The translations under genes were made by a program, and so were the position numbers. From positions 1-53,527 of the IMG/VR virus record IMGVR_UViG_3300012232_000015: a DNA stretch of 53,527 nucleotides. One strand, 5' to 3'. The notes under the pieces are model-generated. The model worked only from the letters and a program-made list of their open reading frames with translations. It searched no databases and was not told where the DNA came from. The first letter of the stretch is position 1; every line of letters begins with the position of its first letter. The stretch comes from a virus (taxonomy: Duplodnaviria > Caudoviricetes). Positions 7,030 to 53,021 of the stretch are shown piece by piece.

Positions 7030-9876
7030 TTGCCCCGAGCCAGGACCGACTTGGAGGCGGTGAGCGCCATCGCCGAGCTGGAGAGGCTCGGGGTGAAGTT
7101 CGAGCCGTCTGGCGAGAATGAGATCCGACTAAGGTGTCCGGCACACGAAGATGCGCAGCCCAGCTGCTCTCTGAACGTCGCCAAGAACGTGTGGACCTGC
7201 CACGCGTGCAAGGCGAAGGGAGACGTCGTGACGCTGCTCGCGCTCTTCGCGGGCGTGGAGCGAGCCACGATGCTGGCCGAGCTGTCGAAGCGCTACTCAC
7301 TGGAGGGCGTCCGGCAGATCAATCCCGACCGCATCGAGAAGCTGCACGCAGCGGTCTGGGACGCGGGACCGCTTCTCACTGCGCTGCGCGAGCGCGGCGT
7401 GACGGACGAGATGATCCGGCACGCTCGACTAGGGTACGCCGAGGGGCGCATCTGCATCCCGGTGTACGACCTGCAAGGCCGGTGCGTCAACGTCAGGCGC
7501 TACTTGCCGGGCGCGCCGACCGCCGACAAGATGCGGAACTCCCGCGGCTACGGCGACATCAGGCTGTACCGGCCGGAGGACCTGCGCGACCGCGAGATGG
7601 TTTGGGTGTGCGGCGGCGAGATGAAGTCGCTGGTGGTCGGCTCGCTGCTGAGGCAGCACGGAGTCGGCGCGGTGTGCGCGACGGCGGGGGAGGGGCGGTG
7701 GGACCCGACCTGGAACAGAATGTTCGCCGGCAAGCGCGTCTGGGTCTGCATGGACGTGGACGCCGCCGGTCGAGCCGCGGCTGCGACGGTGGCCAGGCAC
7801 TTGGCTTCTCACGCCGCCGAGGTGAAGCTGGTCGAGCTGCCGCTGGACCGCGAGCGCTACCCCAAGGGCGACGTCAACGACTACGTCGGCTCCGAAGGTG
7901 CGGACGCCGGCGACTTGCTCCGACTGATGGAGTCGGCGAAGCCGTGGCGACCGCCCTCGAGAGAGGCGCCGGACGACCGCGGGGTGCGGCGAGTGACGCT
8001 GGCCTCCGCGACGCGACCGCAGAATGTGGGGTGGCGGCTCGCGTTCGAGACCACGGTGACGGCGATGGACACCACGCCGTACCTCGTGCCGAAGACCGTC
8101 AAGGTGGCGTGCACGCGCGACCAGCCGCTGTGTCACGAGTGCGCCGTGCCGGCGCTGGACCAGGACGAGGGAGGGTTCGTCACGATGCACGTGGCTAGCA
8201 CCTCAGTCGGAATCCTCGAGATGGTGAACGCCGCCAACGAGCACCAGCGCCACGCACTTCGTGAGGCGCTCGGCATTCCAGTCTGCAAGGTCGTCGAGTT
8301 CGACGTGATGGCGCACCACGAGGTGGTCGACGTCAGGCTGGCTCCGCAGCTCGAGGTGGGCACCGGAGTCGGCACGCACAATGTGCTGCAGCCTGCGTTC
8401 GTCGTCGGAGCGCGCGTGGATCTCAACGTGCCGTACGCGGCGGAAGGGCGACTGCACCCGCACCCGAAGACGCAGCAAGCTACCCTGATTGTGGACGCCG
8501 TCGGCGAGACTGCGGACAACCTAGAGTCGTTCGCCCCCACCGACGCCGAGCTGGCGTCGCTCGAGATCTTCAAGCCGGAGGAGTGGACCGTCGAGGGCGT
8601 CAGGGAGAAGCTGCGGCAGCTGTATCGCGACTTCGCCGCCAACGTCACAGGCATCGTGCGACGGCCGGAGATGCACCTCGCGATGGACCTGGCGTGGCAC
8701 TCGCCGCTGATGTTCAGACTAGAAGGCCGGCGGTGCAACGGCTGGCTCAACGTGCTGGTCATCGGCGACTCGTCGCAGGGGAAGAGCGAGACGTTCCTCC
8801 GGCTGCAGGAGCACTACGGGCTTGGCGAGCGAGTCGACTGCAAGAACGCGACGGTGGCCGGCCTGCTCGGCGGTCTGCAGCAGATCGGGACGAGGTGGTT
8901 CGTGTCGTGGGGCCTCATCCCCACGCACGACCGGCGGCTCGTGGGCCTCGAGGAAGTCAAGGGTGCCAGCGTCGAGGTGCTGGCCAAGCTCACCGACATG
9001 CGCAGCTCCGGCATCGCAGAGATCCCGAAGATAGAGAGGCGGCGAGCGCACGCTCGCACGCGCCTCATCTGGATCTCAAATCCACGAAGCAGTCGGCCCA
9101 TCGGCGCGCACTCGTTCGGCGTCGAGGCGATCCTCGAGCTGATCGGCGGCCTCGAGGATGTGAGGCGCTTCGACCTAGCGATCATCGTCGGCTCAGGCCA
9201 GGTGACGGTCGAGGAGATGGGTGAGACCGCTCAGGCGGCGCACCGACACACAGCTGAGCTTTGTCGGCGGTTGGTGCTGTGGGCTTGGACGCGCAAGGAA
9301 GACCAGGTGATCTTCGGCGACGACGCGACGGCGACTCTGAGGCGCGAAGCGTCGGCGCTGTGCGACGACTTCTCTGAGGCTCTGCCCTTGATAGACCGCG
9401 GAACGACGAAGGTGAAGCTGGCTCGCTTGTCCGCGGCACTCGCAGCGCGGACGTTTTCCCGCGACGGCGACTCAATCGCGGTGCTGTCGTGCCACGCAGA
9501 GTACGCCGCCGGCTTCGTGCGCAGAGTGTACTCCGACCCGACATTCGGCTACCTCGACTTCTCCGCGTCGCAGCGGAAGGTTGAGAGCATCGACGACCCT
9601 GACGCGGTGCGGCGCCAGATCCTCACCTTGCGGTGGCCGCGAGCCTTCACACAGATGCTGCTCTATCGCGACGAGCTCACGCACCAAGACTTCATTGACT
9701 CCTGTGAAGTGGACCCGGACACAGCGAGGGCGCTAGTGGCGTTCTTCGTCAGGCAGCACACGATGGTGAGGCGCCGCACAGCGGGATACCAGAAGACACC
9801 TGAGTTCATCCGACTCTTGAAGGAGATGGAGGTCAAGGGCGTGCCGGCTACTGGACAGAGTGTGGGAGAATTCTGA
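7030..9876 (+). CDS. CHC2 zinc finger-TOPRIM primase-like / MCM-family AAA+ helicase fusion
   Basis: RBS AAGGAGG and TTG start. CPAHED..PSCSLN..W.CHAC zinc ribbon. TOPRIM DxD (MDVDAAG) and KGDVNDY. Walker A IGDSSQGKS, Walker B VGLEE, sensor ISNP and arginine finger RRFDL, as in MCM. Confidence 0.85.
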   Translation: MPRARTDLEAVSAIAELERLGVKFEPSGENEIRLRCPAHEDAQPSCSLNVAKNVWTCHACKAKGDVVTLLALFAGVERATMLAELSKRYSLEGVRQINPDRIEKLHAAVWDAGPLLTALRERGVTDEMIRHARLGYAEGRICIPVYDLQGRCVNVRRYLPGAPTADKMRNSRGYGDIRLYRPEDLRDREMVWVCGGEMKSLVVGSLLRQHGVGAVCATAGEGRWDPTWNRMFAGKRVWVCMDVDAAGRAAAATVARHLASHAAEVKLVELPLDRERYPKGDVNDYVGSEGADAGDLLRLMESAKPWRPPSREAPDDRGVRRVTLASATRPQNVGWRLAFETTVTAMDTTPYLVPKTVKVACTRDQPLCHECAVPALDQDEGGFVTMHVASTSVGILEMVNAANEHQRHALREALGIPVCKVVEFDVMAHHEVVDVRLAPQLEVGTGVGTHNVLQPAFVVGARVDLNVPYAAEGRLHPHPKTQQATLIVDAVGETADNLESFAPTDAELASLEIFKPEEWTVEGVREKLRQLYRDFAANVTGIVRRPEMHLAMDLAWHSPLMFRLEGRRCNGWLNVLVIGDSSQGKSETFLRLQEHYGLGERVDCKNATVAGLLGGLQQIGTRWFVSWGLIPTHDRRLVGLEEVKGASVEVLAKLTDMRSSGIAEIPKIERRRAHARTRLIWISNPRSSRPIGAHSFGVEAILELIGGLEDVRRFDLAIIVGSGQVTVEEMGETAQAAHRHTAELCRRLVLWAWTRKEDQVIFGDDATATLRREASALCDDFSEALPLIDRGTTKVKLARLSAALAARTFSRDGDSIAVLSCHAEYAAGFVRRVYSDPTFGYLDFSASQRKVESIDDPDAVRRQILTLRWPRAFTQMLLYRDELTHQDFIDSCEVDPDTARALVAFFVRQHTMVRRRTAGYQKTPEFIRLLKEMEVKGVPATGQSVGEF

Positions 9877-9877
9877 G

Positions 9878-10429
9878 ATGACGACCGACAACGACGACTT
9901 GCTGCAGCTAATGCGCCCCAAATACGGAGATGCGGAGCGGCGACCTGACGAGCGCGCCTCGATGACCGGCATGGTGCGCGCCTTCCACGAGAAGCACGGC
10001 TTCGCCGTCGGTCGAGAGCTGCACACCGGAGCGACGCCGAGCGACCGGAGCGATGTGGTGACCAGCGTCGCCGCCAGGCTGCGCGCCGCGATCCCTAGAG
10101 TCGGCATCGACGACCTCCGCGTGGCCAGGCTGAACCTCATCGTCGAGGAGTGCGCCGAGCTGGCGGAAGCGCTGCTGGCGCGCGACAAAGCTCTAGTACT
10201 CGACGCGCTGGCGGACCTGGCCTACGTTGTGGTCGGCACGGCGGTGGCGTACGGCCTGCCGCTCGAGGCCGCGTTCGACGAGGTGCACCGCAGCAACATG
10301 ACAAAGGAGGCTGACGGGACCCACAAGCCGGCTAAGGGCCCGGACTATCAGCCGCCGCAGCTGACGCGACTGGTGCAGGCGCTGCGGGCGATCGACCTGG
10401 CGACGGGCGACCAGAGGGGGACGCAGTGA
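9878..10429 (+). CDS. MazG-like / all-alpha NTP pyrophosphohydrolase (dUTPase/dCTPase-like)
   Basis: EECAELAEA...DALADLAYV...AFDEVHRSNMTK...KGPDYQPP motifs of the PRA-PH/DR2231-like family. Confidence 0.88.
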   Translation: MTTDNDDLLQLMRPKYGDAERRPDERASMTGMVRAFHEKHGFAVGRELHTGATPSDRSDVVTSVAARLRAAIPRVGIDDLRVARLNLIVEECAELAEALLARDKALVLDALADLAYVVVGTAVAYGLPLEAAFDEVHRSNMTKEADGTHKPAKGPDYQPPQLTRLVQALRAIDLATGDQRGTQ

Positions 10430-11412
10430 GCCACGCTCCCAGGTACGGGTCGCTCGACGAGATGTGGTCGCACGCCGTACTGCAACTGCTGTTCGTCAGT
10501 CCGGCAGTGGAGAGCCGCGCGGGCGGGACGCTCGAGCAGCTCGGCTTCGTCGGGCGCTTGACGAACGTGCGCAGGAACGTGCTGTGGAATGAGGTGCGAC
10601 TCGCGTCTCCGATCTACGCCGCGGCTGAGCTGCTGTGGTACTTGAGCGGCAGCGCTGACGGGGCGATGATCCGCGCCTACGCCCCGCAGTATGAAGGGTT
10701 CCTCGACGACAAGGGCGTCGCCTACGGGGCGTACGGTCGGCGGTGGGCGGAGCACGCGCAGCTTGAGCACGTCATCGGGGTGCTCAGAGAGAAGCGCGCG
10801 TCGAGGCAGGCGGTCGTCGTCTCCTGGGAGGCGCGGGACCTGGCCGCCGCCAGACAGGGAGGGTGCAGGGACGTGCCGTGCACTCTCGCCCTCCAGTTCC
10901 TGCTCCGGGACGGCGAGCTGAACCTCGTCGCCACGATGCGCTCGAACGACGTCTGGCTCGGGATGCCGTACGACGTCTTCTGCTTCACGGTGATCCAGCA
11001 GCTCATCGCGGCCGCGGTCGGCGCGGAGCCTGGCTGGTACCAGCACCAGGCTGGGTCGCTGCACCTCTACGACCAGCACCGCGCTCGAGCGAGCGAGGCG
11101 GTGAATGACATCAACAGGCGCGACGCCAACCTCCCGTCTCTGGAGTTCGCGCTGCCTCCGCCTCCGTGGAGCGACTGGGGTTGGGAGAGCATTCGCTGCG
11201 ACGTGCTGTCCTTCGTGATCGCCGAGGCGACGCAGCGCAACCGGCGAGAGCGGTGCGACGGGACTCTGCGAAACCGGTCGGACTGGCTGGCGCACTGCGT
11301 CGCGCTCACCGGCATGGAGCACGACATTGAGCCGGTCGGGCCGCTCGATCAGCTGCTCATCGAGCGCGCCGAGCTCGTCCTAGAGAGACGAAAGGAGAGA
11401 GTCAAGTCGTGA
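10426..11412 (+). CDS. Thymidylate synthase-fold enzyme, probable dCMP hydroxymethylase/methylase
   Basis: SRQAV, catalytic DVPCT, MRSNDVWLGMPYDVFCF, AGSLHLY. Asp at the position of ThyA Asn177. Confidence 0.85.
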   Translation: MSHAPRYGSLDEMWSHAVLQLLFVSPAVESRAGGTLEQLGFVGRLTNVRRNVLWNEVRLASPIYAAAELLWYLSGSADGAMIRAYAPQYEGFLDDKGVAYGAYGRRWAEHAQLEHVIGVLREKRASRQAVVVSWEARDLAAARQGGCRDVPCTLALQFLLRDGELNLVATMRSNDVWLGMPYDVFCFTVIQQLIAAAVGAEPGWYQHQAGSLHLYDQHRARASEAVNDINRRDANLPSLEFALPPPPWSDWGWESIRCDVLSFVIAEATQRNRRERCDGTLRNRSDWLAHCVALTGMEHDIEPVGPLDQLLIERAELVLERRKERVKS

Positions 11413-11945
11413 TCATCATCGAGGGCGCCGACAATGTCGGGAAGACCACGCTAGCGCAGAAGCTGGCAGAATTGATGGCACGACACTTCGGGAAGCAGGA
11501 GTGGCGCGCCCACTATCGGCACATGACGAGACCGCCGCCAGACTTCGACCACGTCAGCGGGTACTTCGAGGGCGTGGGATCCGTTGTGCAGGACCGCTAT
11601 CACCTCGGCGCGATCGTCTACGGGATGATGCTGGGGCGAGGCGGCTATCCGGACGCGCAGGGGATGCGGCACGTGCAGCGGTACCTCGCGTGGCGCGGCG
11701 CTCTGGTGGTGGTGATGACGAGCAACCGCGACTCGCTCCGGGAGCGGCTCAGGAAGTCGACGAAACAGGAGATGTACGAGCAGGGCGTCATCCTCGCGGC
11801 GAACGACTGCTTCAGGGCGCTGTCGACCCAGCACAATCAAGGTGCGCCGTACTGCGATCGAGTGATCGACGTCACCGACGGGTGGCCAGGTCAGGCGGAG
11901 GAAGAGCTGCTCATGGCAGAGTGGAGGTCGCGGTGGACCAGCTGA
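11409..11945 (+). CDS. dNMP kinase (thymidylate-kinase-like P-loop)
   Basis: IIIEGADNVGKTT Walker A and QDRYH motif. Confidence 0.85.
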   Translation: MIIIEGADNVGKTTLAQKLAELMARHFGKQEWRAHYRHMTRPPPDFDHVSGYFEGVGSVVQDRYHLGAIVYGMMLGRGGYPDAQGMRHVQRYLAWRGALVVVMTSNRDSLRERLRKSTKQEMYEQGVILAANDCFRALSTQHNQGAPYCDRVIDVTDGWPGQAEEELLMAEWRSRWTS

Positions 11946-12379
11946 CCTTGACCGCCATGCGCGACAAGATCGTCTCCGCCACCCTCGCCGCGGAGCGATC
12001 GACACGGTGCAAGCGCAAGGGCGCGGCGGCCCTCGCCACCGACGCGGAGATGCAGGCGGTCATCGTGGCGCACAACGGCCCGACGCACATCTCGTGCACC
12101 GCGGAGCTGGGCAACTGCGGGTGCCAGCACGCTGAGGCGAGGCTGGTGATGCAGCTGATGAGGCTGACCACCCTAGACCAGAGCTGGCGCCCCGACATCC
12201 TGCTCACCACGCTCGCGCCGTGCGTGGCGTGCGCCTACCTGATCGCGGAGTCGGGGCGCTTCCGCACCGTGCTGCACCTCCGAGAATACCACGACGCGCG
12301 AGGAGCGGAGATTCTCCGCCGCGCCGGCCTCGAAGTTTTGAGCCTAGAAGGTAGAGGAGCCGCCAGTGCGCAGCGTTAG
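11933..12379 (+). CDS. dCMP deaminase-like zinc-dependent deaminase
   Basis: GGAGG RBS and GTG 11933. HNG...CQHAE...TTLAPCVACA motifs. Confidence 0.88.
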   Translation: MDQLTLTAMRDKIVSATLAAERSTRCKRKGAAALATDAEMQAVIVAHNGPTHISCTAELGNCGCQHAEARLVMQLMRLTTLDQSWRPDILLTTLAPCVACAYLIAESGRFRTVLHLREYHDARGAEILRRAGLEVLSLEGRGAASAQR

Positions 12380-12773: not shown

Positions 12774-14774
12774 GTGGCCGTCCGAGTGGAGAGTGGGCTG
12801 ATCGCGGAGAGCGCTGGCGAGCTGCCGTCGCTCGCCGGGGTCCGCACTCTGTACCTCGACCTCGAGACTACGTCGGGCGACGACAAGGAAGACGGCGTGA
12901 GCTTCTGGCGCGGCGACACGCAAGTGTGCGGCGTCGCCGTCACGGCCGACGACTGGGAGGACGCCTGGTACGCGCCGGTGAGGCACCACGGGCCGGGCGC
13001 CGAGCGGTGGAACCTCGATCCGGAGCCGGTGATGCGCTGGGCCGGCGAAGGCGTCAAGCGATGCGTCGAGTGGGTCAACGCCAACGTGAAGTTCGACGCG
13101 CACGGCATGGCGAAGGAGGGCCACATCTTCGACTGCAGGCTCGTCGACCTGGTGAACCTGGCTAAGACGATCAACTCCGATCGCTACGAATTCGGCCTCA
13201 AGTCGCTGTGTCGCGAGTGGGTGGGGGTCCCGATGCGCGCTGAGGACCGCATCAAGAGCCACCTCAAAGGGCTGAAGTCGAAGGACTACGGCCGCGTGCC
13301 GGCTGACCTGCTCGGCGACTATGCGTGCGAAGACGTCCGCGGCGCCAGGGCGCTGCACAAGTGGCTGGTCGCGCACCGCCCGACAGAGATGGCCGATCTG
13401 TGGGAGACGGAGACGCTGCTCACGCCGGTGCTGTGGGACGTCGAGCAGGAGGGCGCGCGCATCGACGAGACGCGCACGAAGATCGAGCAGGTGCTGACGA
13501 TGCGCCGCATCCTCGCGCTGGGCGATGAGATCCGCGAGCTGACCGGCGTCGAGCTGGTCAAGTCGCCGCAGGCGATGCACGATCTGTTCTGTGTGCAGCT
13601 CGGTCTGCCGGTCGTCGGGTGGACGGATGAGGGCAACCCCTCCTTCGACAAGGAGGCGATGCGGCTCTACGAGGGTCTCCCTCAAGTGGTCACCGACCCG
13701 ATCGCGTCTCGAGTGGTGCAGGCTGTGCGCGACTGGAGCGTCGAGAACACTTACCTGTCGCTCTTTCTCCGGCCGTTCCTCGCGAAGCGCGACGCGGGCG
13801 GCAAGCTACACAGCACGTACAACCAGACGATCAAGACCGGCCGCACGTCGAGCAGCGACCCCAACTCGCAGCAGTTCAACTCGAGAGCGAAGGCGCTGGT
13901 GATCCCCGACCCCGGCAGGTCGCTGCTGAGCGTCGACGCGTCGCAGGTCGAGTTCCGCTTGCTGGTCCACCTGTGCAAGGACCGCGCCGCGATCGCCGCC
14001 TACCAAGCTGACCCGCGCACCGACTTTCACCAGTGGGTGGCGGAGCTGTGCGGCATCTCGCGGCGCGCCGCCAAGAACGTCAACTTCGCCATGGCGTACG
14101 GAGCCGGCAAGGCCAAGGTGACTGCGATGCTCGCCGGCGACCGGCGCATCATGGAGGACATCGGCGCGACGGTCGAAGCTGAGATCCAGGCCGGCGTCAC
14201 CTTGCCCAGCGCTCGACCGTGGCGCTACCGCACACTGTGCGAGGAGCGAGCGGCGCAGATCTACGCGACCTACCACGAGAGGCTCAGCAGCATCCGGCGG
14301 ACGAGCTTCACGGCGAGCGACGCGTGCCGCCTCAACGGCTACGTGCGGAATCCGTACAAGCGGAGGCGGCACCTCCCGCAGCACCTGGCGCACCGCGCGT
14401 TCAACAGCGCAGTGCAAGGCGGAGCGATGGACCTCATCAAGGAGCGCATCGTGGCTCTCGCGCCGCGGTACAATAGCTGGTCCAGGTCGATCGACTTGAG
14501 GATCCACGCCAGCGTGCACGACGAGCTCGTGCCGTCGCTGCCCAGTGAGGCGCTCAAGTGCGCAGAAGGTCAAGAGCCTGAAGTCGTTGCGGAGATCGAG
14601 CGAATCCTGAGCGCGCCGAGCGTTCCGATGCGTGTGCCGTTCGTGTGGGACAGCGGCTGGAGCGACGAGAGCTGGGCAGCCGCGGCGCATCACGCGGACG
14701 AGCGCAAGAAAGCCCGCCAAATTTTTGGCGGGCTCGGTGTGCCAGGCGCGCAGCGAGCGAAGGTGGCGCAGTGA
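12774..14774 (+). CDS. polA: DNA polymerase, family A, with 3'-5' exonuclease
   Basis: ExoI LDLETT, ExoII NVKFD, ExoIII YACED. TGRTSSSDPN, motif A DASQVEFR, motif B KNVNFAMAYG (Phe at the 762-equivalent), motif C VHDE. Confidence 0.95.
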   Translation: MAVRVESGLIAESAGELPSLAGVRTLYLDLETTSGDDKEDGVSFWRGDTQVCGVAVTADDWEDAWYAPVRHHGPGAERWNLDPEPVMRWAGEGVKRCVEWVNANVKFDAHGMAKEGHIFDCRLVDLVNLAKTINSDRYEFGLKSLCREWVGVPMRAEDRIKSHLKGLKSKDYGRVPADLLGDYACEDVRGARALHKWLVAHRPTEMADLWETETLLTPVLWDVEQEGARIDETRTKIEQVLTMRRILALGDEIRELTGVELVKSPQAMHDLFCVQLGLPVVGWTDEGNPSFDKEAMRLYEGLPQVVTDPIASRVVQAVRDWSVENTYLSLFLRPFLAKRDAGGKLHSTYNQTIKTGRTSSSDPNSQQFNSRAKALVIPDPGRSLLSVDASQVEFRLLVHLCKDRAAIAAYQADPRTDFHQWVAELCGISRRAAKNVNFAMAYGAGKAKVTAMLAGDRRIMEDIGATVEAEIQAGVTLPSARPWRYRTLCEERAAQIYATYHERLSSIRRTSFTASDACRLNGYVRNPYKRRRHLPQHLAHRAFNSAVQGGAMDLIKERIVALAPRYNSWSRSIDLRIHASVHDELVPSLPSEALKCAEGQEPEVVAEIERILSAPSVPMRVPFVWDSGWSDESWAAAAHHADERKKARQIFGGLGVPGAQRAKVAQ

Positions 14775-15100
14775 GAGTGAGCGACGACTTCGACGACGCG
14801 ATCAAGCTGGCGTGCGGCTGCGAGACCGGCAGCTGGCCCACATTCGCAGAAGTCCTGTGTTGTCGCGCCTGGCCAGGCACGGAGGCGGGCAGGTTCGTCT
14901 TGACTTCGCACGCGCGGCAGCTGACGTACTGGCGAGATGAGCGGGGCGACCACGTGTTCAGCACAGCCGCCGAGTGTCCCAAGCTCATGATCCGCGCGTC
15001 GCAGACGGTGCGCATGTCGCAGTCGCAGCTGTGGGTCGTCCGGCACAGTCTGTGGGGGTGGGCCGCGCGTGCGAAGCTGGAGGCGCCGCATGTCAACTGA
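14771..15100 (+). CDS. Hypothetical protein
   Basis: GTGA-coupled to the polymerase. Cys/Trp-rich, lies between polymerase and MTase-like gene. Confidence 0.55.
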   Translation: MRVSDDFDDAIKLACGCETGSWPTFAEVLCCRAWPGTEAGRFVLTSHARQLTYWRDERGDHVFSTAAECPKLMIRASQTVRMSQSQLWVVRHSLWGWAARAKLEAPHVN

Positions 15101-16256
15101 CGGCAAGCTGAGCGGCATCCGCGCCGCCGGCGTGCACACTTACTTCGGCGGCTTTCACCGGTCGCTCGAGGCGGACACCGAGTGGCTGGGCAGCGCCGAG
15201 TCGTGGAGCCCCGCGATCCGAGCGCGGCGACTGGCCGGGCTGCCGACGCTCAATCACCCTGGTCTCACACCGCACGCCGAGCTGGTGGTCAGCAATCCGC
15301 CGTGCAGCCGGTTCTCGGCTATGAGCACCGGCACGTATAGTGAAGATCACAAGACGAAGCTCGGCTCGTTCTGCGAGCTAGAGGACGCCGTGCTGTTCGC
15401 CGAGCGCGTCCGGTGCAGAGCTTTCTGGTGGGAGACCGGCCCGCTGCTGTGGACTAAAGGGAGGGAGCTCGTGCGCGCCGTGCACCGCCACTGGGCAGAG
15501 CGGTGGGGAGGGTGCACGACGGTAGCAGTGAAGCTGGACGTCCGCTGGACGGGAGTGCCGCAGCGGCGGCCGCGCTGCCACGTCGTGCACGTCGCGGGAG
15601 ACCGGGAGGTGCCCTGCGTAGCCCCCTCCGCCTGGCCCCTAGGACAGCCTGCCTTGCTCTGGGCCCGGGACAGGGTAGCCAGTCAGGGTTGGGGGTCGGA
15701 CCCGGCCGGGTGGGATCAGGTAAAGCCCGTGGGGGCGTACCGGAAGATGACCGCCCTGGCCTACTACGAGATGTGCATGCTGATCTCGGAGTTCATCGCC
15801 ACCAGGCCGCAGCTTGTGGGGCTGCAGGACCACTTCACCAACGCGGTGCTGAGCGGCCGGCCGATGATCTGCGATGAGGAGGACCGGTTCGTCTCGTGGC
15901 AGGAGTACGCGGCGCTGATGTGCCTGCCGCTGGAGATGGTGCGACCGGTCGCCGAAGAGCAGGGCGGCTGGCAGGCGCTGATGATGATGAGCAAGGGCGT
16001 CTGCCCCGCCGCGTCGCGGTGGGTGGCCGATTGCGTAGTGGCGCCGCTGATGGGCCTCGCGCCTTACGAAGACGACCTCGAGCTCGTCGCGCGCGGAGCG
16101 CCGAAGCGCGTCGAGGTCGGCGGGCCTGGAGGCGACGTCGGCTGGCTAGAGGCCGTCGCGCCGGACTGGCCGCGAAGGCGGAGTGCGTACGGCGAGGATC
16201 ACAGGAAGGCGATCCCGCTGAAGGACCAAAGTTGCCCGAAGAGGACGTGGGAGTGA
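15090..16256 (+). CDS. Atypical C5-cytosine DNA methyltransferase homologue
   Basis: Motif IV SNPPCSRFS, motif VIII PQRRPR, degenerate motif I HTYFGGF, motif VI WWETG, motif IX RFVSWQEYAALM, motif X MSKGVCP. Confidence 0.8.
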   Translation: MSTDGKLSGIRAAGVHTYFGGFHRSLEADTEWLGSAESWSPAIRARRLAGLPTLNHPGLTPHAELVVSNPPCSRFSAMSTGTYSEDHKTKLGSFCELEDAVLFAERVRCRAFWWETGPLLWTKGRELVRAVHRHWAERWGGCTTVAVKLDVRWTGVPQRRPRCHVVHVAGDREVPCVAPSAWPLGQPALLWARDRVASQGWGSDPAGWDQVKPVGAYRKMTALAYYEMCMLISEFIATRPQLVGLQDHFTNAVLSGRPMICDEEDRFVSWQEYAALMCLPLEMVRPVAEEQGGWQALMMMSKGVCPAASRWVADCVVAPLMGLAPYEDDLELVARGAPKRVEVGGPGGDVGWLEAVAPDWPRRRSAYGEDHRKAIPLKDQSCPKRTWE

Positions 16257-16711: not shown

Positions 16712-16920
16712 GTCACCGAACCGACACCATCGACCGACAGCCGGAGCCGAAGACGTACCTCGGCGACGGAGCCTATGCGCGCATCGAGCTGGCCTACGGC
16801 TCGAAGAATCTGGTGATCACCGCCGAGAACGGCCTGCACGTCACCGACTGCGTCGTGCTGGGCCCCGGCGAGCTGAAGGAGCTGCTGAGGTTCTGTCGAG
16901 AGAACGGAGCGATCCAGTGA
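16708..16920 (+). CDS. Hypothetical phage protein
   Basis: AGGAG RBS, GTGA-coupled, YLGDGAYA motif. Confidence 0.7.
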   Translation: MSHRTDTIDRQPEPKTYLGDGAYARIELAYGSKNLVITAENGLHVTDCVVLGPGELKELLRFCRENGAIQ

Positions 16921-17147
16921 ATCCCAAATATGCGCCCAAGAGCGACCTCGACACGTTCGGCTACCTCGTCGAGGAGTGCGGTGAGGTGCTGCAGGCCGTC
17001 GGCAAGGCGCTGCGGTGGGGCCTCGAGAGTGCGAACCCTGAGCTGCCTGAGGAGCAGCGGGAGACGAACCGCGACTGGATCCTCCGCGAGCTGCAGGACG
17101 TGGAGCGCGCCGTCTTCCTGATGCGCGCCAGACTGGAGGCCAGGTGA
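16917..17147 (+). CDS. Small MazG-like nucleotide pyrophosphohydrolase domain protein
   Basis: LVEECGEVLQAVGK...RELQDV (EExxE...ExxD pattern). Confidence 0.7.
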   Translation: MNPKYAPKSDLDTFGYLVEECGEVLQAVGKALRWGLESANPELPEEQRETNRDWILRELQDVERAVFLMRARLEAR

Positions 17148-18148
17148 CTGCCGAGATCCCGCAAGGTCGGTGGCGGCCCGGAGTGTGGGCCACGCCCGAA
17201 GAATTAGCGGAGCTGCCGACGCGCGGGCCGGCGTGGGAGGGGCTCGCGAAGACGGCCGGCAAGCCGATCGGGGAGCCGGACTTGGCGGACCAGGACTCTG
17301 ACGGCGACTCGATCGCGATGGCGAAGGGTTTAGTATTTGCGCGCACCGGCGGCGAGGAGCTGCGGCGAGAGGTGTCCGACGCGTGCGCCAAGATCATCGG
17401 GACCGAGAAGAAGGGCGACGCGCTGGCGCTGGGGCGCAACCTGATCGGCTACGTCATCGCGGCGGACCTAGTGGGCTTGCCGTCGATGGACCCGGACGGG
17501 CTGCGTCGCGTGTTTCGCAGGTGGCTTCGCAAGGTCGTCGTCGAGCGCCTGACTGACGAGAGGACGCTGGTCAGCACGCACGAGGAGCGGCCGAACAACT
17601 GGGGCACGCACGCCGGGGCCAGCAGGGTCGCCGTTGCCGCGTACCTCAAGGACCCTCAAGCGGTGCGGCGGTGTGCGCAGGTCTTCAAAGGGTGGCTGGG
17701 CGACCGACAGGCGCACGCCGGGTTCGAGTTCGGCGACGACTTGAGCTGGCAGGCTGACCCGAAGAAGCCGGTCGGCGTCAACCCCAAAGGCGCCACTCTC
17801 AAAGGGCACTCGATCGACGGCGCGCTGCCCGACGACCAGCGGCGCGCGGGGCCCTTCACTTGGCCCCCGCCGAAGGAGAACTACGTGTGGGAGGCTCTGC
17901 AAGGGGCGCTCGCGCAGGCGGAGATTCTCTTCAGGTGCGGGTACGACGCCTGGGAGTGGGAGGACAGGGCGCTGTTCCGAGCGGCGACTTGGCTGCACGC
18001 TCAGTGCGAGTACCCTGCGACCGGCGACGACGAGTGGCAGCCGCACCTGCTGAACTTCAGATACCGCGCCAAGTTCCCGACGAAGTCGCCGGCGCGACAC
18101 GGGAAGAGCGTCGGCTTCACCGACTTGACGCACGCAAGGAACTGGTAG
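17144..18148 (+). CDS. Alginate-lyase-like (alpha/alpha toroid) polysaccharide lyase
   Basis: HEERPNNWGTHAGAS resembles the NN(H/W) active-site segment of alginate-lyase-family proteins. Helical, Trp/Tyr-rich, no signal peptide. Confidence 0.6.
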   Translation: MTAEIPQGRWRPGVWATPEELAELPTRGPAWEGLAKTAGKPIGEPDLADQDSDGDSIAMAKGLVFARTGGEELRREVSDACAKIIGTEKKGDALALGRNLIGYVIAADLVGLPSMDPDGLRRVFRRWLRKVVVERLTDERTLVSTHEERPNNWGTHAGASRVAVAAYLKDPQAVRRCAQVFKGWLGDRQAHAGFEFGDDLSWQADPKKPVGVNPKGATLKGHSIDGALPDDQRRAGPFTWPPPKENYVWEALQGALAQAEILFRCGYDAWEWEDRALFRAATWLHAQCEYPATGDDEWQPHLLNFRYRAKFPTKSPARHGKSVGFTDLTHARNW

Positions 18149-18680: not shown

Positions 18681-18811
18681 TGGGGCAGCGGTGCGATAAG
18701 ACCCACGAGCACGCGATTCCCGGGTGCCCGTACTGCGCAGTGGACGAGCTCATGGAGAGGTCGAAAGCGCAGCTGGCGAGCATAGATGAGGTAGACGGTG
18801 CGCGAGACTAA
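18680..18811 (+). CDS. Small Cys/His protein (43 aa, not in ORF track)
   Basis: MGQRCDKTHEHAIPGCPYCAVDELMERSK... fills the gap between coupled genes. Confidence 0.5.
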   Translation: MGQRCDKTHEHAIPGCPYCAVDELMERSKAQLASIDEVDGARD

Positions 18812-19592
18812 GCCGAGGGTGTTCCTGGTCGCTGAGACGAAGCTGTATAGGGCGCCGACCAGCGGGACCGATGTGCCGGATATGCGCGACTACTTGGGGC
18901 ACGTAGGCGCGCCCGATTGGGAGACGGATTCTCGCACTGACGCCGAGCTGCTGATCGAGGCGGCGGGCCGGCTGTGCTACAAGAGCTGGAAGCCCGGGCT
19001 CAACCCGAACGTGACTAGGGTGCGGGAGGGGAACAGGGAGTACGTCGGCAACCTGATCGCGCAGCGGCACGGCAGCGTGCTCGAGCACGCGCAGGTCACG
19101 TTTGTCTTCGCCGACGTGAGCCGCGTCTTCACGCACGAGCTGGTCCGGCACAGGGCGGGGTGCGCTTACAGCCAGGAGTCACTGCGCTATGTGCGTCTTG
19201 ATGACCTGGGGTTCAGGATTCCTGGGTGCTTGGAGCCGCTGCGCGAGCACGTCAACGACCTGATGCTGCGGATGGAGAACTTCCAGAAGCATGCAGCCGT
19301 GACGCTGGAGGTGTCCGAGCTGCCGTTCTCGGTGAAGAAGGTCATCACCAGCGCGATGCGCCGGCTAGCGCCGCTTGGGTTGAGCACGCATATCATGTGG
19401 AGTGTCAACTTGAGGGCCCTGCGGCACGTCATCGCGCAGAGGACGGCCGAGGGCGCAGAGGAGGAGATGCGCACGGTGTTCGACGAGGTGGCCAGGATCG
19501 CTAAGCGGCGGTGGCCGGCGGTGTTCCAAGACTTCGAGAGGCAAGAGCCTGAAGGCTCGTGGCGCTCGACGGCGGGCGGGGAGAAGGTGTGA
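18798..19592 (+). CDS. thyX: FAD-dependent thymidylate synthase ThyX
   Basis: AGRLCY, HGSVLEH, SRVFTHELVRHR...SQESLRY signature, NLRALRH. Confidence 0.97.
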   Translation: MRETKPRVFLVAETKLYRAPTSGTDVPDMRDYLGHVGAPDWETDSRTDAELLIEAAGRLCYKSWKPGLNPNVTRVREGNREYVGNLIAQRHGSVLEHAQVTFVFADVSRVFTHELVRHRAGCAYSQESLRYVRLDDLGFRIPGCLEPLREHVNDLMLRMENFQKHAAVTLEVSELPFSVKKVITSAMRRLAPLGLSTHIMWSVNLRALRHVIAQRTAEGAEEEMRTVFDEVARIAKRRWPAVFQDFERQEPEGSWRSTAGGEKV

Positions 19593-51280: not shown

Positions 51281-51706
51281 ATGGTGTCAGTTTCCAATCA
51301 GACCGCGATCATTATGTGCGACGCCGCGGCCGACTCGGCCGACCTGGGGTCCACCAACCCGAGCGCCACTCTGGTGTTCTACTCCGGCACGCCGCCGATC
51401 AACGTCGACGCGGCACTGTCCGGGAACACTGTGCTGGCGCAGCTCGTCATGAGCAACCCGGCGTACGGCGCCGCGGTCGACTCCAATCCCGGCGCGACGG
51501 CGACGGCAGCCGCGATCGCCGACGACCTGGCCGCAGATGCGACCGGGACGTGCACCTTCGCCAGGACGCTGGACCGAGGCAACGTGCCGCGGCACCAGCA
51601 CACGGTCGGGACGTCCGGCACGGAGATCATCGTCGCCACGACGTCGTTCGTGGCGAACGCGCTCATCGAGGTCCAGTCCCTCACCATCAAGATGCCGGAG
51701 TCCTGA
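51281..51706 (+). CDS. Hypothetical virion protein
   Basis: GGAG RBS. YSGTPP...TVLAQL...ADATGT.TFAR...VGTSG pattern seen in tail-region proteins. Confidence 0.75.
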   Translation: MVSVSNQTAIIMCDAAADSADLGSTNPSATLVFYSGTPPINVDAALSGNTVLAQLVMSNPAYGAAVDSNPGATATAAAIADDLAADATGTCTFARTLDRGNVPRHQHTVGTSGTEIIVATTSFVANALIEVQSLTIKMPES

Positions 51707-51707
51707 C

Positions 51708-53021
51708 ATGCTGCGAGAGATTACTCGGGCCGCGATCGTTCTGGCCCTGCTGACGCCGCTCGAGTGTGCGGACTCGGGGCAGGCTGCTGACCTGAGCTTC
51801 CTCGTCATCAGGGCCGATCAGCTGCGGGCCTCCGCCCTCGGCTGCTACGGCGACGCCGTGGCGCTAACTCCGAACATCGACGCGCTGGCGGCGGAGGGGG
51901 TGAGGTACGTGAAGGCGTACAGCATCCCTGTGTGCTCTGCTCACCGGACGTCGTTCGACGTGGGGAAGCTGACGCACGCGTGCCCGAATCTCAACAAGTT
52001 GCACCCCGTCGACCGCACCACGTACGACATGCTACACGATGCCGGGTGGCGCACGGCGGAGATCGGCAAGTGGCACAAGACGCCGGTAAGTTTGCAGCTC
52101 TCCAACAAGGAGGTGGTGCCGACCGCCATCCTCGGCGGACTGGACTACCAGGCCGGGCACGAGCAGAAGCACGAGCTCGTGCTAAGCCAGTACTACGCCA
52201 ACGGCAGCTCGTCGCCGCTCCCCGCAGGTCAGTGGAGGCCGCAGAAGTACGTCGACCTGGCGAAGGCGCAGCTCGACTACGCGGCGATCAGCGGGCAGCC
52301 GTTCTACCTGATGCTGAACCTCGAGCAGCCGCACACTCCGTACGCGGACGTCGAGGGGACGCAGTGGGACGTCTTCGACTCCGGCGACGTGCCGGTGCCG
52401 GGAAACGTCCCGGCGGGCGCGCAGACCCAGGCGTCGGCCGACCTCGCCAGCTACTACTCCATGGTGCACTCCCTCGACGACGCCGTCGGGCAAGTGCTCG
52501 ATCACCTCGAGTCGCTCGGCCTGGACGACGAGACGATCGTGATCTTCACATCGGACCACGGCGCTCACGTCGGGGCGCACGGGCTCCTCGCCGTCAACCA
52601 GCAGAAGCGGACGCCCTACGAAGAGGCGACTCGCGTGCCGCTGATCATTCGCGAGCCGGGCGCTGAGCCGGCCGTCAGCGACGCGCTGTTCGGCACGGTG
52701 GACTTCAAGGTGCTGATCCTCGACCGGGCCGGCATCGAGGCGCCGCCGTCGCTGCACGGCTTCAAGCACGTGCCGGGCTCCCTGTACGTCCAGCACTATC
52801 TCGCCGACGAGACGCTCGACGGGCCGTGGCGAATGGTGGTGCGGGACGACGGGGTGAAGTACGCGGTCTCGGAAGGCTCACCGAGCGGGTGGCTGATGTT
52901 CGACACGGAGGCCGACCCGCTGGAGCTGACGAACCTCATCGGCACGAGCGACCCGCGAGAGGCGGAGATGCTCGCGCTTCTCCAAGAGTCGGCCGCGCTG
53001 GTAGGGGACACTCTCCCCTAG
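51708..53021 (+). CDS. Sulfatase (formylglycine-dependent family, CxAxR variant)
   Basis: ADQLR..LGCYG...TPNIDALAAEG, CSAHR, GKWH, PHTPY, IFTSDHG, YEEATRVPLI, DPLELTNL. Possible N-terminal signal peptide. Confidence 0.92.
   Translation: MLREITRAAIVLALLTPLECADSGQAADLSFLVIRADQLRASALGCYGDAVALTPNIDALAAEGVRYVKAYSIPVCSAHRTSFDVGKLTHACPNLNKLHPVDRTTYDMLHDAGWRTAEIGKWHKTPVSLQLSNKEVVPTAILGGLDYQAGHEQKHELVLSQYYANGSSSPLPAGQWRPQKYVDLAKAQLDYAAISGQPFYLMLNLEQPHTPYADVEGTQWDVFDSGDVPVPGNVPAGAQTQASADLASYYSMVHSLDDAVGQVLDHLESLGLDDETIVIFTSDHGAHVGAHGLLAVNQQKRTPYEEATRVPLIIREPGAEPAVSDALFGTVDFKVLILDRAGIEAPPSLHGFKHVPGSLYVQHYLADETLDGPWRMVVRDDGVKYAVSEGSPSGWLMFDTEADPLELTNLIGTSDPREAEMLALLQESAALVGDTLP

Follow-up and report, generated by a model that had tools for sequence, protein, structure and literature searches.

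The 53,527-base stretch of DNA analysed here, referred to as the window, is the whole of virus record IMGVR_UViG_3300012232_000015, a one-strand phage genome of 53.5 kb with a GC content of 67% and a CheckV completeness estimate of 89%. This text concerns the gene at window positions 15090..16256 (stop codon included), which encodes a 388-aa protein, P0001, resembling cytosine-C5 DNA methyltransferases in its translation, its homologues and its AlphaFold2 model, and the chemistry that this protein might perform on phage DNA. All window features described below lie on the plus strand. The ATG at 15090 is preceded at a distance of 6 nt by a Shine-Dalgarno-like GGAGG (15078..15082, read from the sequence) and overlaps the stop codon of a small upstream open reading frame (ORF) (ATGTCAACTGA). 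This small ORF (14777-15100, approximately 107 aa), located between the polymerase gene and the P0001 gene, is rich in cysteine (CGCETGSW...LCCRAW), and the stop/ATG overlap suggests that the two genes may be translationally coupled. A longer, GTG-started ORF (15069-16256) encloses the same frame; the closest homologue, P0002, which is 67% identical to P0001, begins at the equivalent position. The GC content by codon position in the P0001 frame (0.67/0.54/0.86) is of the coding type.

Single-sequence searches with P0001 returned zero Pfam families at E ≤ 10, no NCBIfam match and no match to PDB sequences, and PHROGs gave only a marginal match (phrog_116, E 0.054). The C5-methyltransferase family PF00145, not reached by P0001 itself, was reached by 10 of 16 close relatives with a best E of 4.8e-8. 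A word-indexed search in which 8000 candidates were scored gave 16 proteins at E ≤ 1e-3, and an exhaustive phmmer search of 1.84 billion representatives gave 86 relatives at E ≤ 1e-3, of which 54 reached E ≤ 1e-10 and 45 also E ≤ 1e-30. The 57-sequence family alignment (A2) leaves out the fragments P0047 and P0056 as well as relatives weaker than approximately 1e-27, and its members are as divergent as 26% identity. Family members were located on 6 viral contigs, 1 GenBank phage and 16 metagenome contigs (1 of which duplicates a viral contig and 8 of which were too short), and the GC content of the relatives' contigs spans 35-71%. In the phage GenBank collection, a homologue was present in only two near-identical records, MW202657 and MW202864, at 38% identity.

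Twenty of the 32 weaker phmmer matches to P0001 were aligned separately (A3). These proteins are not canonical methylases and represent a sister family that has NPPCAxWS, WESV and PQxRxR; its motif IX is canonical, and its motif X reads [RK]GVxPPVGEW, where the cationic residue is Arg in 13 and Lys in 7 of the 20 sequences. Against PDB, the best match of the A3 profile was CmoX (8YF3, 7e-33), followed by M.HaeIII (1.7e-30) and M.HhaI (approximately 3e-25). CmoX is the phage enzyme reported to form natural 5-carboxymethylcytosine with carboxy-S-adenosylmethionine (Cx-SAM) made by a phage CmoA, the product often being extended by the amide ligase CmoY (PMC12783734, Nat Commun, Dec 2025). The phage GenBank collection contained no close relative of the sister family among cultured phages.

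The catalytic residues of C5-methyltransferases are retained in the P0001 family, in which N69, P70, P71, C72, R74, S76, E115, G117, P118, Q158, R160, R162 and H164 are invariant (57/57 in A2). Motif IV, NPPCSRFS (residues 69-76; 15294..15317), aligned to GFPCQAFS 78-85 of M.HhaI and, via A3, to SPPC 95-98 of 8YF3, which makes Cys72 the catalytic nucleophile by alignment. In the motif VI variant WWETGP (residues 113-118; 15426..15443) Glu115 aligned with M.HhaI Glu119, with Thr and Gly replacing the Asn and Val of ENV, and motif VIII, GVPQRRPRCH (residues 155-164; 15552..15581), aligned to GIPQKRERIY of the same enzyme, so that C72, E115, Q158, R160 and R162 were matched with M.HhaI C81, E119 and QKRER. 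The family profile aligned to M.HhaI through motifs I, II, IV, VI (WWE to FME) and VIII, and features of the target-recognition domain and of motif IX are also kept in the family (VLSGR ... R-x-x-S-x-x-E-Y-A-A-L).

The canonical motifs that bind S-adenosylmethionine (SAM, or AdoMet), F-x-G-x-G-G, E-N-V and G-N-(A/S)-V, are absent from P0001, which reads HTYFGGF, ETG and SKGV. The motif I variant HTYFGGF (residues 16-22; 15135..15155) carries His16 and Tyr18 in place of the canonical Phe and first Gly; amongst the A2 sequences having a residue there, His was found in 50/53 and Tyr in 48/53, and HMMER paired the family's FGGF with LGGF 21-24 of M.HhaI. The Asp loop of motif III is missing. Relative to the family profile, M.HhaI has an insertion that holds Asp60-Ile61, and the AdoMet site of P0001 thus appears degraded on its adenine side. 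Compared by alignment only with the adenosine contacts of CmoX, P0001 conserves the Glu, has His16 at the position of Phe25 (ungapped), and shows no conserved Asp at Asp69. The conserved residue is Glu37 (15198..15200; Glu in 55/57 of A2), which aligned with the ribose-binding motif II Glu of M.HhaI (Glu40) and with CmoX Glu47. In motif IV, Asn69 falls on M.HhaI Gly78 (the Gly of GxPC) and on CmoX Ser95, while Arg74 is invariant as well as specific to the P0001 family. Altogether, with Lys302, Asn69, Arg74, His16 and Tyr18 in place and the motif III Asp loop gone, the cofactor/C5 side of the pocket appears to have been rebuilt.

An AlphaFold2 model built on A2 (pLDDT 89, pTM 0.90) returned M.HhaI as the top Foldseek hit (E 1e-12). 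With VIA-align the model superposed on M.HhaI with Z 25.4 and an rmsd of 3.3 Å over 287 residues (model 3-328 versus chain 5-327), followed by M.HaeIII (Z 23.9), M.MpeI (Z 23.3) and CmoX 8YF3 (Z 20.9). P0001 is thus predicted to be a full two-domain C5-methyltransferase homologue, with a catalytic Rossmann-like domain and a target-recognition domain.

The most distinctive residue of the pocket is Lys302 (codon 15993..15995), located within MSKGVCP (residues 300-306) at the position normally occupied by the motif X Asn. In A2 this column contains Lys in 55 of 57 sequences, with one Arg and one Gln. When A2 was compared with A3 by hhalign (probability 100, E 1.7e-41, 301 columns), M300-S301-K302-G303-V304 was paired with V-C-R-G-V, and the A3 profile in turn placed its Arg/Lys column on Arg350 of CmoX 8YF3 ('GRMV', counted from printed coordinates) and on the 'GNAV' Asn of M.HaeIII. 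The P0001 model shows the expected arrangement of a helix, K302, the GVC loop and a helix; the end offsets of the fold alignments vary from target to target by 1 to 4 residues, which is too coarse to place Lys302. The assignment of Lys302 to the motif X Asn position is therefore confirmed at the level of alignment, where it is carried by sequence profiles and secondary structure. A preliminary description of this DNA, made from its letters, had quoted HTYFGGF, PPC (in NPPCSRFS), ETG (in WWETGP), PQRRPR and MSKGVCP, had aligned the lysine with the motif X Asn by eye, and had proposed a structure prediction as a check. All of these motifs are real parts of the P0001 translation, the lysine was placed at the same position by the profile alignments, and the AlphaFold2 model aligned end to end with M.HhaI and M.MpeI.

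CmoX has Arg350 in place of M.HhaI Asn304; this Arg touches the part of Cx-SAM destined for C5, the carboxymethyl group, and the R350N variant is reported to be dead (PMC12783734). Since Lys302 aligned with this Arg350, it would be expected to face the C5 substituent. The engineered variants M.MpeI N374K and M.MedI N377K, which carry Lys at the same position, accept carboxy-SAM; with SAM, M.MedI-N377K still protects >99% of sites and M.MpeI-N374K 28% (PMC12015181). Since M.MedI-N377K retains full methylation with SAM, a motif X Lys does not in itself force the use of Cx-SAM.

Pfam and PHROG scans of the 57 plus-strand ORFs of the window revealed a block of deoxynucleotide genes around P0001. 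Amongst these is a ThyA homologue, a predicted deoxycytidylate (dCMP) 5-hydroxymethylase (10426..11412; PF00303, 3.7e-26), with the CMP hydroxymethylase MilA as its best PDB match (2e-28, versus 4e-17 for thymidylate synthase). The protein has Asp at the position of ThyA N177 ('PYD') and at L143 ('RDVPC') and keeps Asp169 ('ND'). Because this signature matches the rules given for cytosine-specific hydroxymethylases (N177D, L143D/E, Asp169 kept; PMC13326640), the enzyme is predicted to be of that type rather than a 5-hydroxy-dCMP synthase. The neighbouring genes encode a nucleotide pyrophosphohydrolase of the MazG/PRA-PH type (9860..10429, 189 aa; PF01503, 3.1e-14; phrog_671, 2.5e-24), which is the candidate dCTPase of the module, a P-loop nucleotide kinase (11409..11945; weak Thymidylate_kin and AAA_18 matches; phrog_761, 1.3e-9) and a dCMP deaminase domain (11978..12379; phrog_174) that makes up the C-terminal part of ORF 11501-12379 (PF00383, 1.4e-7 over ORF residues 160-257). 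A family A DNA polymerase (12774..14774; PF00476, PF01612) is the upstream neighbour. Downstream of P0001, the same scans identified a second small MazG-like gene of 76 aa (16917-17147), giving the phage two separate MazG-type pyrophosphohydrolase genes, and the flavin-dependent thymidylate synthase ThyX (18798..19592; PF02511, 1.2e-40), whose presence means that the ThyA-like gene is not needed for thymidylate.

The MazG-type enzyme, the hydroxymethylase, the kinase, the dCMP deaminase and ThyX together are predicted to form a T4-like set for replacing C with 5-hydroxymethylcytosine (5hmC). As the P0001 gene belongs to this T4-like deoxycytidylate module, we infer that the phage DNA carries 5hmC and that 5hmC is the substrate of P0001. 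The Pfam scan of the 57 window ORFs found no class-I methyltransferase, asparagine-synthetase-like ligase, glycosyltransferase or carbamoyltransferase; with neither of the last two present, no known 5hmC-decorating enzyme was found in the window.

The association with a hydroxymethylase extends across the relatives. A ThyA homologue was detected in 12 of the 13 phage-type contigs of the P0001 family with usable flanks (the window, the record of L004, and contigs L001, L002, L003, L005, L007, L125, L128, L129, L131 and L133), the sole miss being a 42% complete record. In each of the six ThyA homologues that were aligned from these contigs, N177 is replaced by Asp and Asp169 is kept. For the sister family, 49 viral records out of 79 loci fetched were searched, and a ThyA homologue was present in 47, including all 17 of those at least 90% complete; the 30 homologues fetched from these records all showed the cytosine-type signature. 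The CmoA model TIGR00740, in contrast, had no match in the window record (E ≤ 0.01), in 7 related viral records or in the 49 sister-family records, that is, in 0 of 57 viral records for both families together. Twenty of these 57 records are at least 90% complete by CheckV, and a further one, the GenBank genome MW202657, is complete and circular.

Two control sets of viral records were used. Records of CmoX enzymes were collected with the pattern DGSPPCSAF (66 of the 80 loci with DNA show the Arg in ERxGR[MA]V), and the 26 contigs of at least 10 kb were used. CmoA was found in 19 of these 26 (E 1e-15 to 1e-48, full-length matches), so the same search does work on phage CmoA, while a ThyA homologue was found in 0 of 26. 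Canonical methylases were represented by 32 of at least 118 loci with the motif IV GGPPCQxFS, on contigs of 28-90 kb and excluding giant-virus bins; 30 were searchable, and a ThyA homologue was present in none of the 30. The P0001 and sister families on the one hand and the CmoX group on the other thus have opposite genomic partners, a hydroxymethylase and CmoA, respectively. For P0001, the genomic evidence points away from a system of the CmoA/CmoX type and toward a function tied to hydroxymethylcytosine. Literature searches gave no published link between C5-methyltransferase-like genes and a dCMP hydroxymethylase; the main text of the eLife MetaGPA paper is without the word 'methyltransferase' and has 'methylase' in its reference list only, and neither 'thymidylate' nor 'NPPC' occurs in the text of the CmoX paper (PMC12783734), though such genes may be listed in the supplements of these two papers.

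Our favoured explanation, to which we would give a probability of roughly one in three, is that P0001 is a covalent C6/C5 enzyme coupled to the phage 5hmC pathway and giving a hypermodified cytosine. At about the same odds, the P0001 family and its more abundant Arg/Lys sister family would be natural enzymes that apply the covalent mechanism of C5-methyltransferases to 5hmC in DNA, replacing or extending the hydroxymethyl group to form a hitherto undescribed cytosine hypermodification. In such a mechanism, P0001 would act on 5hmC in DNA after replication. Cys72 would add to C6 of a flipped cytosine-type base, with Glu115 at N3 and with Arg160 and Arg162 holding O2. Lys302, placed where Arg350 of CmoX touches the oxygens of the C5 side chain, would help the hydroxymethyl oxygen to leave, and a co-substrate held in the former AdoMet pocket would then be joined to the exocyclic methylene. 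The resulting hypermodified cytosine might hide 5hmC from host nucleases. The fold, the motifs, the position of the lysine and the gene associations with their controls are computed results; from them we infer the presence of 5hmC in the virion DNA, its use as substrate, what Lys302 does and the chemistry that follows. The 5hmC explanation accounts for the partner gene, for a lysine beside the C5 substituent, for there being no other 5hmC decorator in the window and for the eroded adenine side of the cofactor site.

Several observations weigh against this explanation. To our knowledge, no natural enzyme remodels 5hmC by C5-methyltransferase chemistry. The conservation of Glu37 (55/57) suggests that an adenosyl cofactor may still be bound. 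Three homologues with the full signature (HCYxGGF, NPPCSRFS, WWETGP, [SA]KSVAP) occur in cellular contexts lacking a ThyA homologue. One of these belongs to a metagenome-assembled genome (MAG) of the candidate-phyla-radiation lineage WWE3, where it occupies a small island (contig L134:9074-13778) between ftsA/ftsZ and ileS, composed of a helix-turn-helix deoxynucleoside kinase, the P0001-family enzyme, DUF1599 ('nucleotide modification associated domain 1') and a thymidine kinase. This MAG of approximately 700 kb had no PF00303 match, and its best CmoA score was 25 bits versus a cut-off of 193. The second cellular homologue is directly followed by a uracil-DNA glycosylase (UDG) gene and lies near lon, and the third adjoins an acyltransferase. 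The substrate of the cellular members is presumably ordinary cytosine, acted upon with common metabolites, and these members, together with the conserved Glu37, weaken the 5hmC explanation for P0001. Additionally, the co-occurrence may derive in part from vertical inheritance of one replication/nucleotide module, many of the sister-family loci are too closely related to count as independent, the canonical-methylase control is rich in proviruses, and the CmoX control consists of fragments that are 6-88% complete.

Amongst the competing explanations, the one that survives best, though we still regard it as unlikely, is that P0001 is an ordinary post-replicative SAM-dependent C5-methyltransferase that forms 5-methylcytosine at a short recognition sequence, with Lys302 as a lineage-specific variant. 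P0001 has the fold and the full set of catalytic residues of a C5-methyltransferase, 10 of 16 relatives reach PF00145, and a lysine at motif X is compatible with methylation, as M.MedI-N377K and M.MpeI-N374K still methylate with SAM (PMC12015181). In the cellular members, which are without CmoA or a ThyA homologue, SAM is the only obvious donor, and the conserved Glu37 fits its use. However, a plain methylase leaves unexplained why Lys is nearly invariant (55/57) and is matched by Arg or Lys in the sister family, Asn being the rule elsewhere, and why the gene is linked to a hydroxymethylase, a partner that none of the 30 canonical-methylase records contains. Such an enzyme would find no free C5 in phage DNA in which 5hmC had taken the place of C. 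Motifs I and III are also altered, and the natural Arg350 enzyme CmoX is reported not to accept SAM (PMC12783734).

The preliminary description had proposed that P0001 may be a natural DNA carboxymethyltransferase, and had noted that no CmoA was visible in the window. On this proposal P0001 would resemble CmoX and would use Cx-SAM from the CmoA of its host to form 5-carboxymethylcytosine, the extra carboxylate being held by a salt bridge to Lys302. The precedent on which it drew, carboxy-SAM use by M.MpeI N374K, is real (PMC12015181), and CmoA was indeed absent from the window record in the TIGR00740 search, as was any class-I methyltransferase Pfam match amongst its ORFs. The proposal also draws on the alignment of Lys302 with CmoX Arg350 and the N374K position, on Asn69 at the position of CmoX Ser95, and on the interchange of Arg and Lys in the sister family, which fits an anion-binding role. 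The CmoA of an E. coli host can supply CmoX with Cx-SAM (PMC12783734), and some neighbouring genes encode carboxylate-acting or methylating enzymes (Amidoligase_2 in L003, FkbM in L001 and L125, and NAD-synthase-like proteins in 19 of 79 sister loci). What tells against carboxymethylation is the distribution of CmoA, with 0 of 57 records compared with 19 of 26 CmoX records in the same search. With a GC content of 35-71% amongst the relatives' contigs, many different hosts would all need to make Cx-SAM, and yet only E. coli amongst 14 control genomes passed the CmoA cut-off, with the WWE3 MAG below it. Furthermore, P0001 lacks the SPPC plus Arg350 signature, and the obligatory hydroxymethylase partner is left unexplained. 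Thus, the position of Lys302 and the natural and engineered precedents for this part of the proposal stood, while the carboxymethyltransferase assignment itself now appears quite improbable; a host supply of Cx-SAM for P0001 is possible but no longer favoured. The idea of natural carboxymethylation is also no longer new, as a natural Cx-SAM enzyme, CmoX with CmoA, was already published in 2025.

A further explanation, which we consider very doubtful, is that P0001 is an AdoMet-independent, aldol-type enzyme, which would act on cytosines left unmodified in the DNA and add an aldehyde to them, either formaldehyde or a carboxy-aldehyde (for example, glyoxylate). Lys302 and Asn69 would then stabilise the alkoxide or carboxylate, and the role in the phage would be to top up the modification where host dCTP had slipped in. 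A cationic residue beside C5 suits the stabilisation of an oxyanion, and such chemistry would work in phages as well as in cells that have neither CmoA nor a ThyA homologue. Cofactor-free C5-methyltransferases tend to deaminate C to U, and for this reason the UDG-superfamily genes directly downstream of the family gene in L120, L125 and L007 would fit an aldol-type enzyme. The in vitro hydroxymethylation of GCGC sites by M.HhaI is a laboratory counterpart (PMC7176277). Nevertheless, this explanation has no natural precedent and no obvious aldehyde source, the conserved Glu37 suggests a nucleoside cofactor, and the link to a hydroxymethylase acting at the nucleotide level is only loosely explained. 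The least credible explanation is that P0001 is a non-modifying protein (one that binds DNA, for instance, or traps modified bases covalently) or an enzyme on a non-DNA substrate, since the lack of Pfam, NCBIfam and PDB-sequence matches for P0001 alone, the paralogues without catalytic Cys downstream in many sister-family loci and the nucleotide-salvage neighbours in the WWE3 MAG (dNK, DUF1599, TK) are set against the invariance of every catalytic residue across 57 sequences down to 26% identity, the retained target-recognition and motif IX features, and a model that aligns with M.HhaI over both domains.

The genes that adjoin the family members elsewhere are varied. The ORF immediately downstream of the family gene on three phage contigs (L002:11022-11921, L125:4450-5340 and L007:10963-11916) encodes a P-loop kinase (phrog_761) whose C-terminus weakly matches the UDG superfamily, and on a cellular contig (L120:2095-2679) a clear UDG of 195 aa (4.5e-20) is located directly downstream. 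This recurring pairing of a P0001-family enzyme with a UDG resembles dcm-vsr. Genes for FkbM-family methyltransferases were found next to or near the family gene in L001:11013-11723 and L125:1648-2319, and an Amidoligase_2 gene approximately 3 kb upstream of it in L003:6272-7111. Recurring neighbours in the 79 sister-family loci were NAD-synthase-like (19), UDP-glucose dehydrogenase (21), epimerase (15) and Methyltransf_11 (10) genes. These, like the FkbM and Amidoligase_2 genes, may encode further tailoring enzymes. In MW202657 the homologue is directly preceded by a methyltransferase gene, which was considered as a candidate CmoA and proved to be of the FkbM family. In L002-L007 the family gene is flanked by conserved ORFs of approximately 345 aa (upstream) and approximately 300 aa (downstream), which were weighed as potential sources of a novel cofactor; the window encodes no homologue of them, and the downstream one is the P-loop kinase.

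Many sister-family loci have a second paralogue of approximately 345 aa directly downstream of the NPPC enzyme that is without the PPC motif and its catalytic Cys (for example, L027:11406-12443 and L030:6560-7591). This cluster comprises 122 proteins in 76 loci, and the two proteins may represent a catalytic and a regulatory subunit.

Other genes of the window include an SNF2 helicase and a primase, with structural genes downstream of ThyX. An alginate-lyase-like protein of 334 aa (17144-18148; Alginate_lyase Pfam, 6.3e-10, residues 119-184; no PHROG match) is oddly placed for a polysaccharide lyase, as its gene lies inside the nucleotide-metabolism/replication block between the P0001 gene and ThyX. 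At the end of the tail gene region, ORF 51537-53021 encodes a sulfatase of 494 aa (PF00884, 9.5e-38), which may act, in the manner of a depolymerase, on a sulfated polymer of the host surface.

There is a fair chance that P0001 performs a new DNA-modifying activity. The enzymes with NPPC and Lys or Arg represent a separate, widespread phage group that shares the cationic residue with CmoX and lies outside the published screen for SPPC plus Arg. A cationic motif X residue may be an unreliable predictor of Cx-SAM use, with consequences for annotation and for the search for enzymes useful in sequencing chemistry. Alternatively, if the 5hmC explanation is true, these phages make a cytosine modification that has not been seen before, with a bearing on phage counter-defence and on new DNA-labelling enzymes, and the pathway would do for cytosine what the kinase/pyrophosphorylase route does for hypermodified thymidines.

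Of the known systems, CmoX of Synechococcus phage S-B43 (8YF3) is comparable with P0001 in being phage-encoded and in having the C5-methyltransferase fold, a cationic motif X residue, the Cys/Glu/Arg catalytic set and a polar residue instead of Gly just ahead of PPC. However, CmoX has SPPC with Arg350, whereas P0001 has NPPC (57/57) with Lys302 and so does not carry the published signature, by which 5615 CmoX candidates were collected, with 4257 CmoA genes on the same contigs (PMC12783734). CmoX also keeps Phe25, Phe48 and Asp69 for the adenine, in contrast to the HxYxGG motif I and missing motif III Asp loop of P0001, and the similarity between the two sequences is very low, with the A1 profile matching 8YF3 at E 2 only. 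The sister family shares with the P0001 family NPPC, the cationic motif X residue, the ThyA-homologue partner and the absence of CmoA (0/49). It differs in that Arg predominates at motif X, motif VI has Val and motif IX is canonical, and also in lacking Arg74 and WWETGP and in being far more abundant (187 viral stretches versus 6).

Canonical C5-methyltransferases such as M.HhaI and M.HaeIII have the same two-domain architecture as P0001 and the same motifs IV (PC), VI (Glu), VIII (QxRxR) and IX; they differ from it in motifs I, VI and X, and their viral records are without the ThyA partner (0/30). M.MpeI N374K and M.MedI N377K match P0001 in having Lys at the motif X Asn position, but these are point mutants of CpG methyltransferases with their other motifs intact and still using SAM, whereas the Lys of P0001 is natural, nearly invariant and accompanied by other changes in the pocket. 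The enzymes that decorate 5hmC, which include the T4 glucosyltransferases and a 5hmC carbamoyltransferase, resemble P0001 in the genes found on the contig, since co-occurrence of the carbamoyltransferase with a ThyA homologue, PRA-PH/MazG and dCMP deaminase has been reported (PMC8670742). Their fold and chemistry are unrelated, as they transfer a group to the hydroxyl without covalent catalysis at C6. The chemistry closest to that proposed for P0001 comes from the laboratory, where an engineered M.SssI attaches thiols to 5hmC and M.HhaI hydroxymethylates GCGC sites by adding formaldehyde to C (PMC7176277), and where M.MpeI becomes covalently bound to 5hmC DNA and takes off its hydroxymethyl group (PMC11347137). 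If the 5hmC explanation is true, P0001 and its relatives would represent the first natural use of this 'atypical' methyltransferase chemistry.

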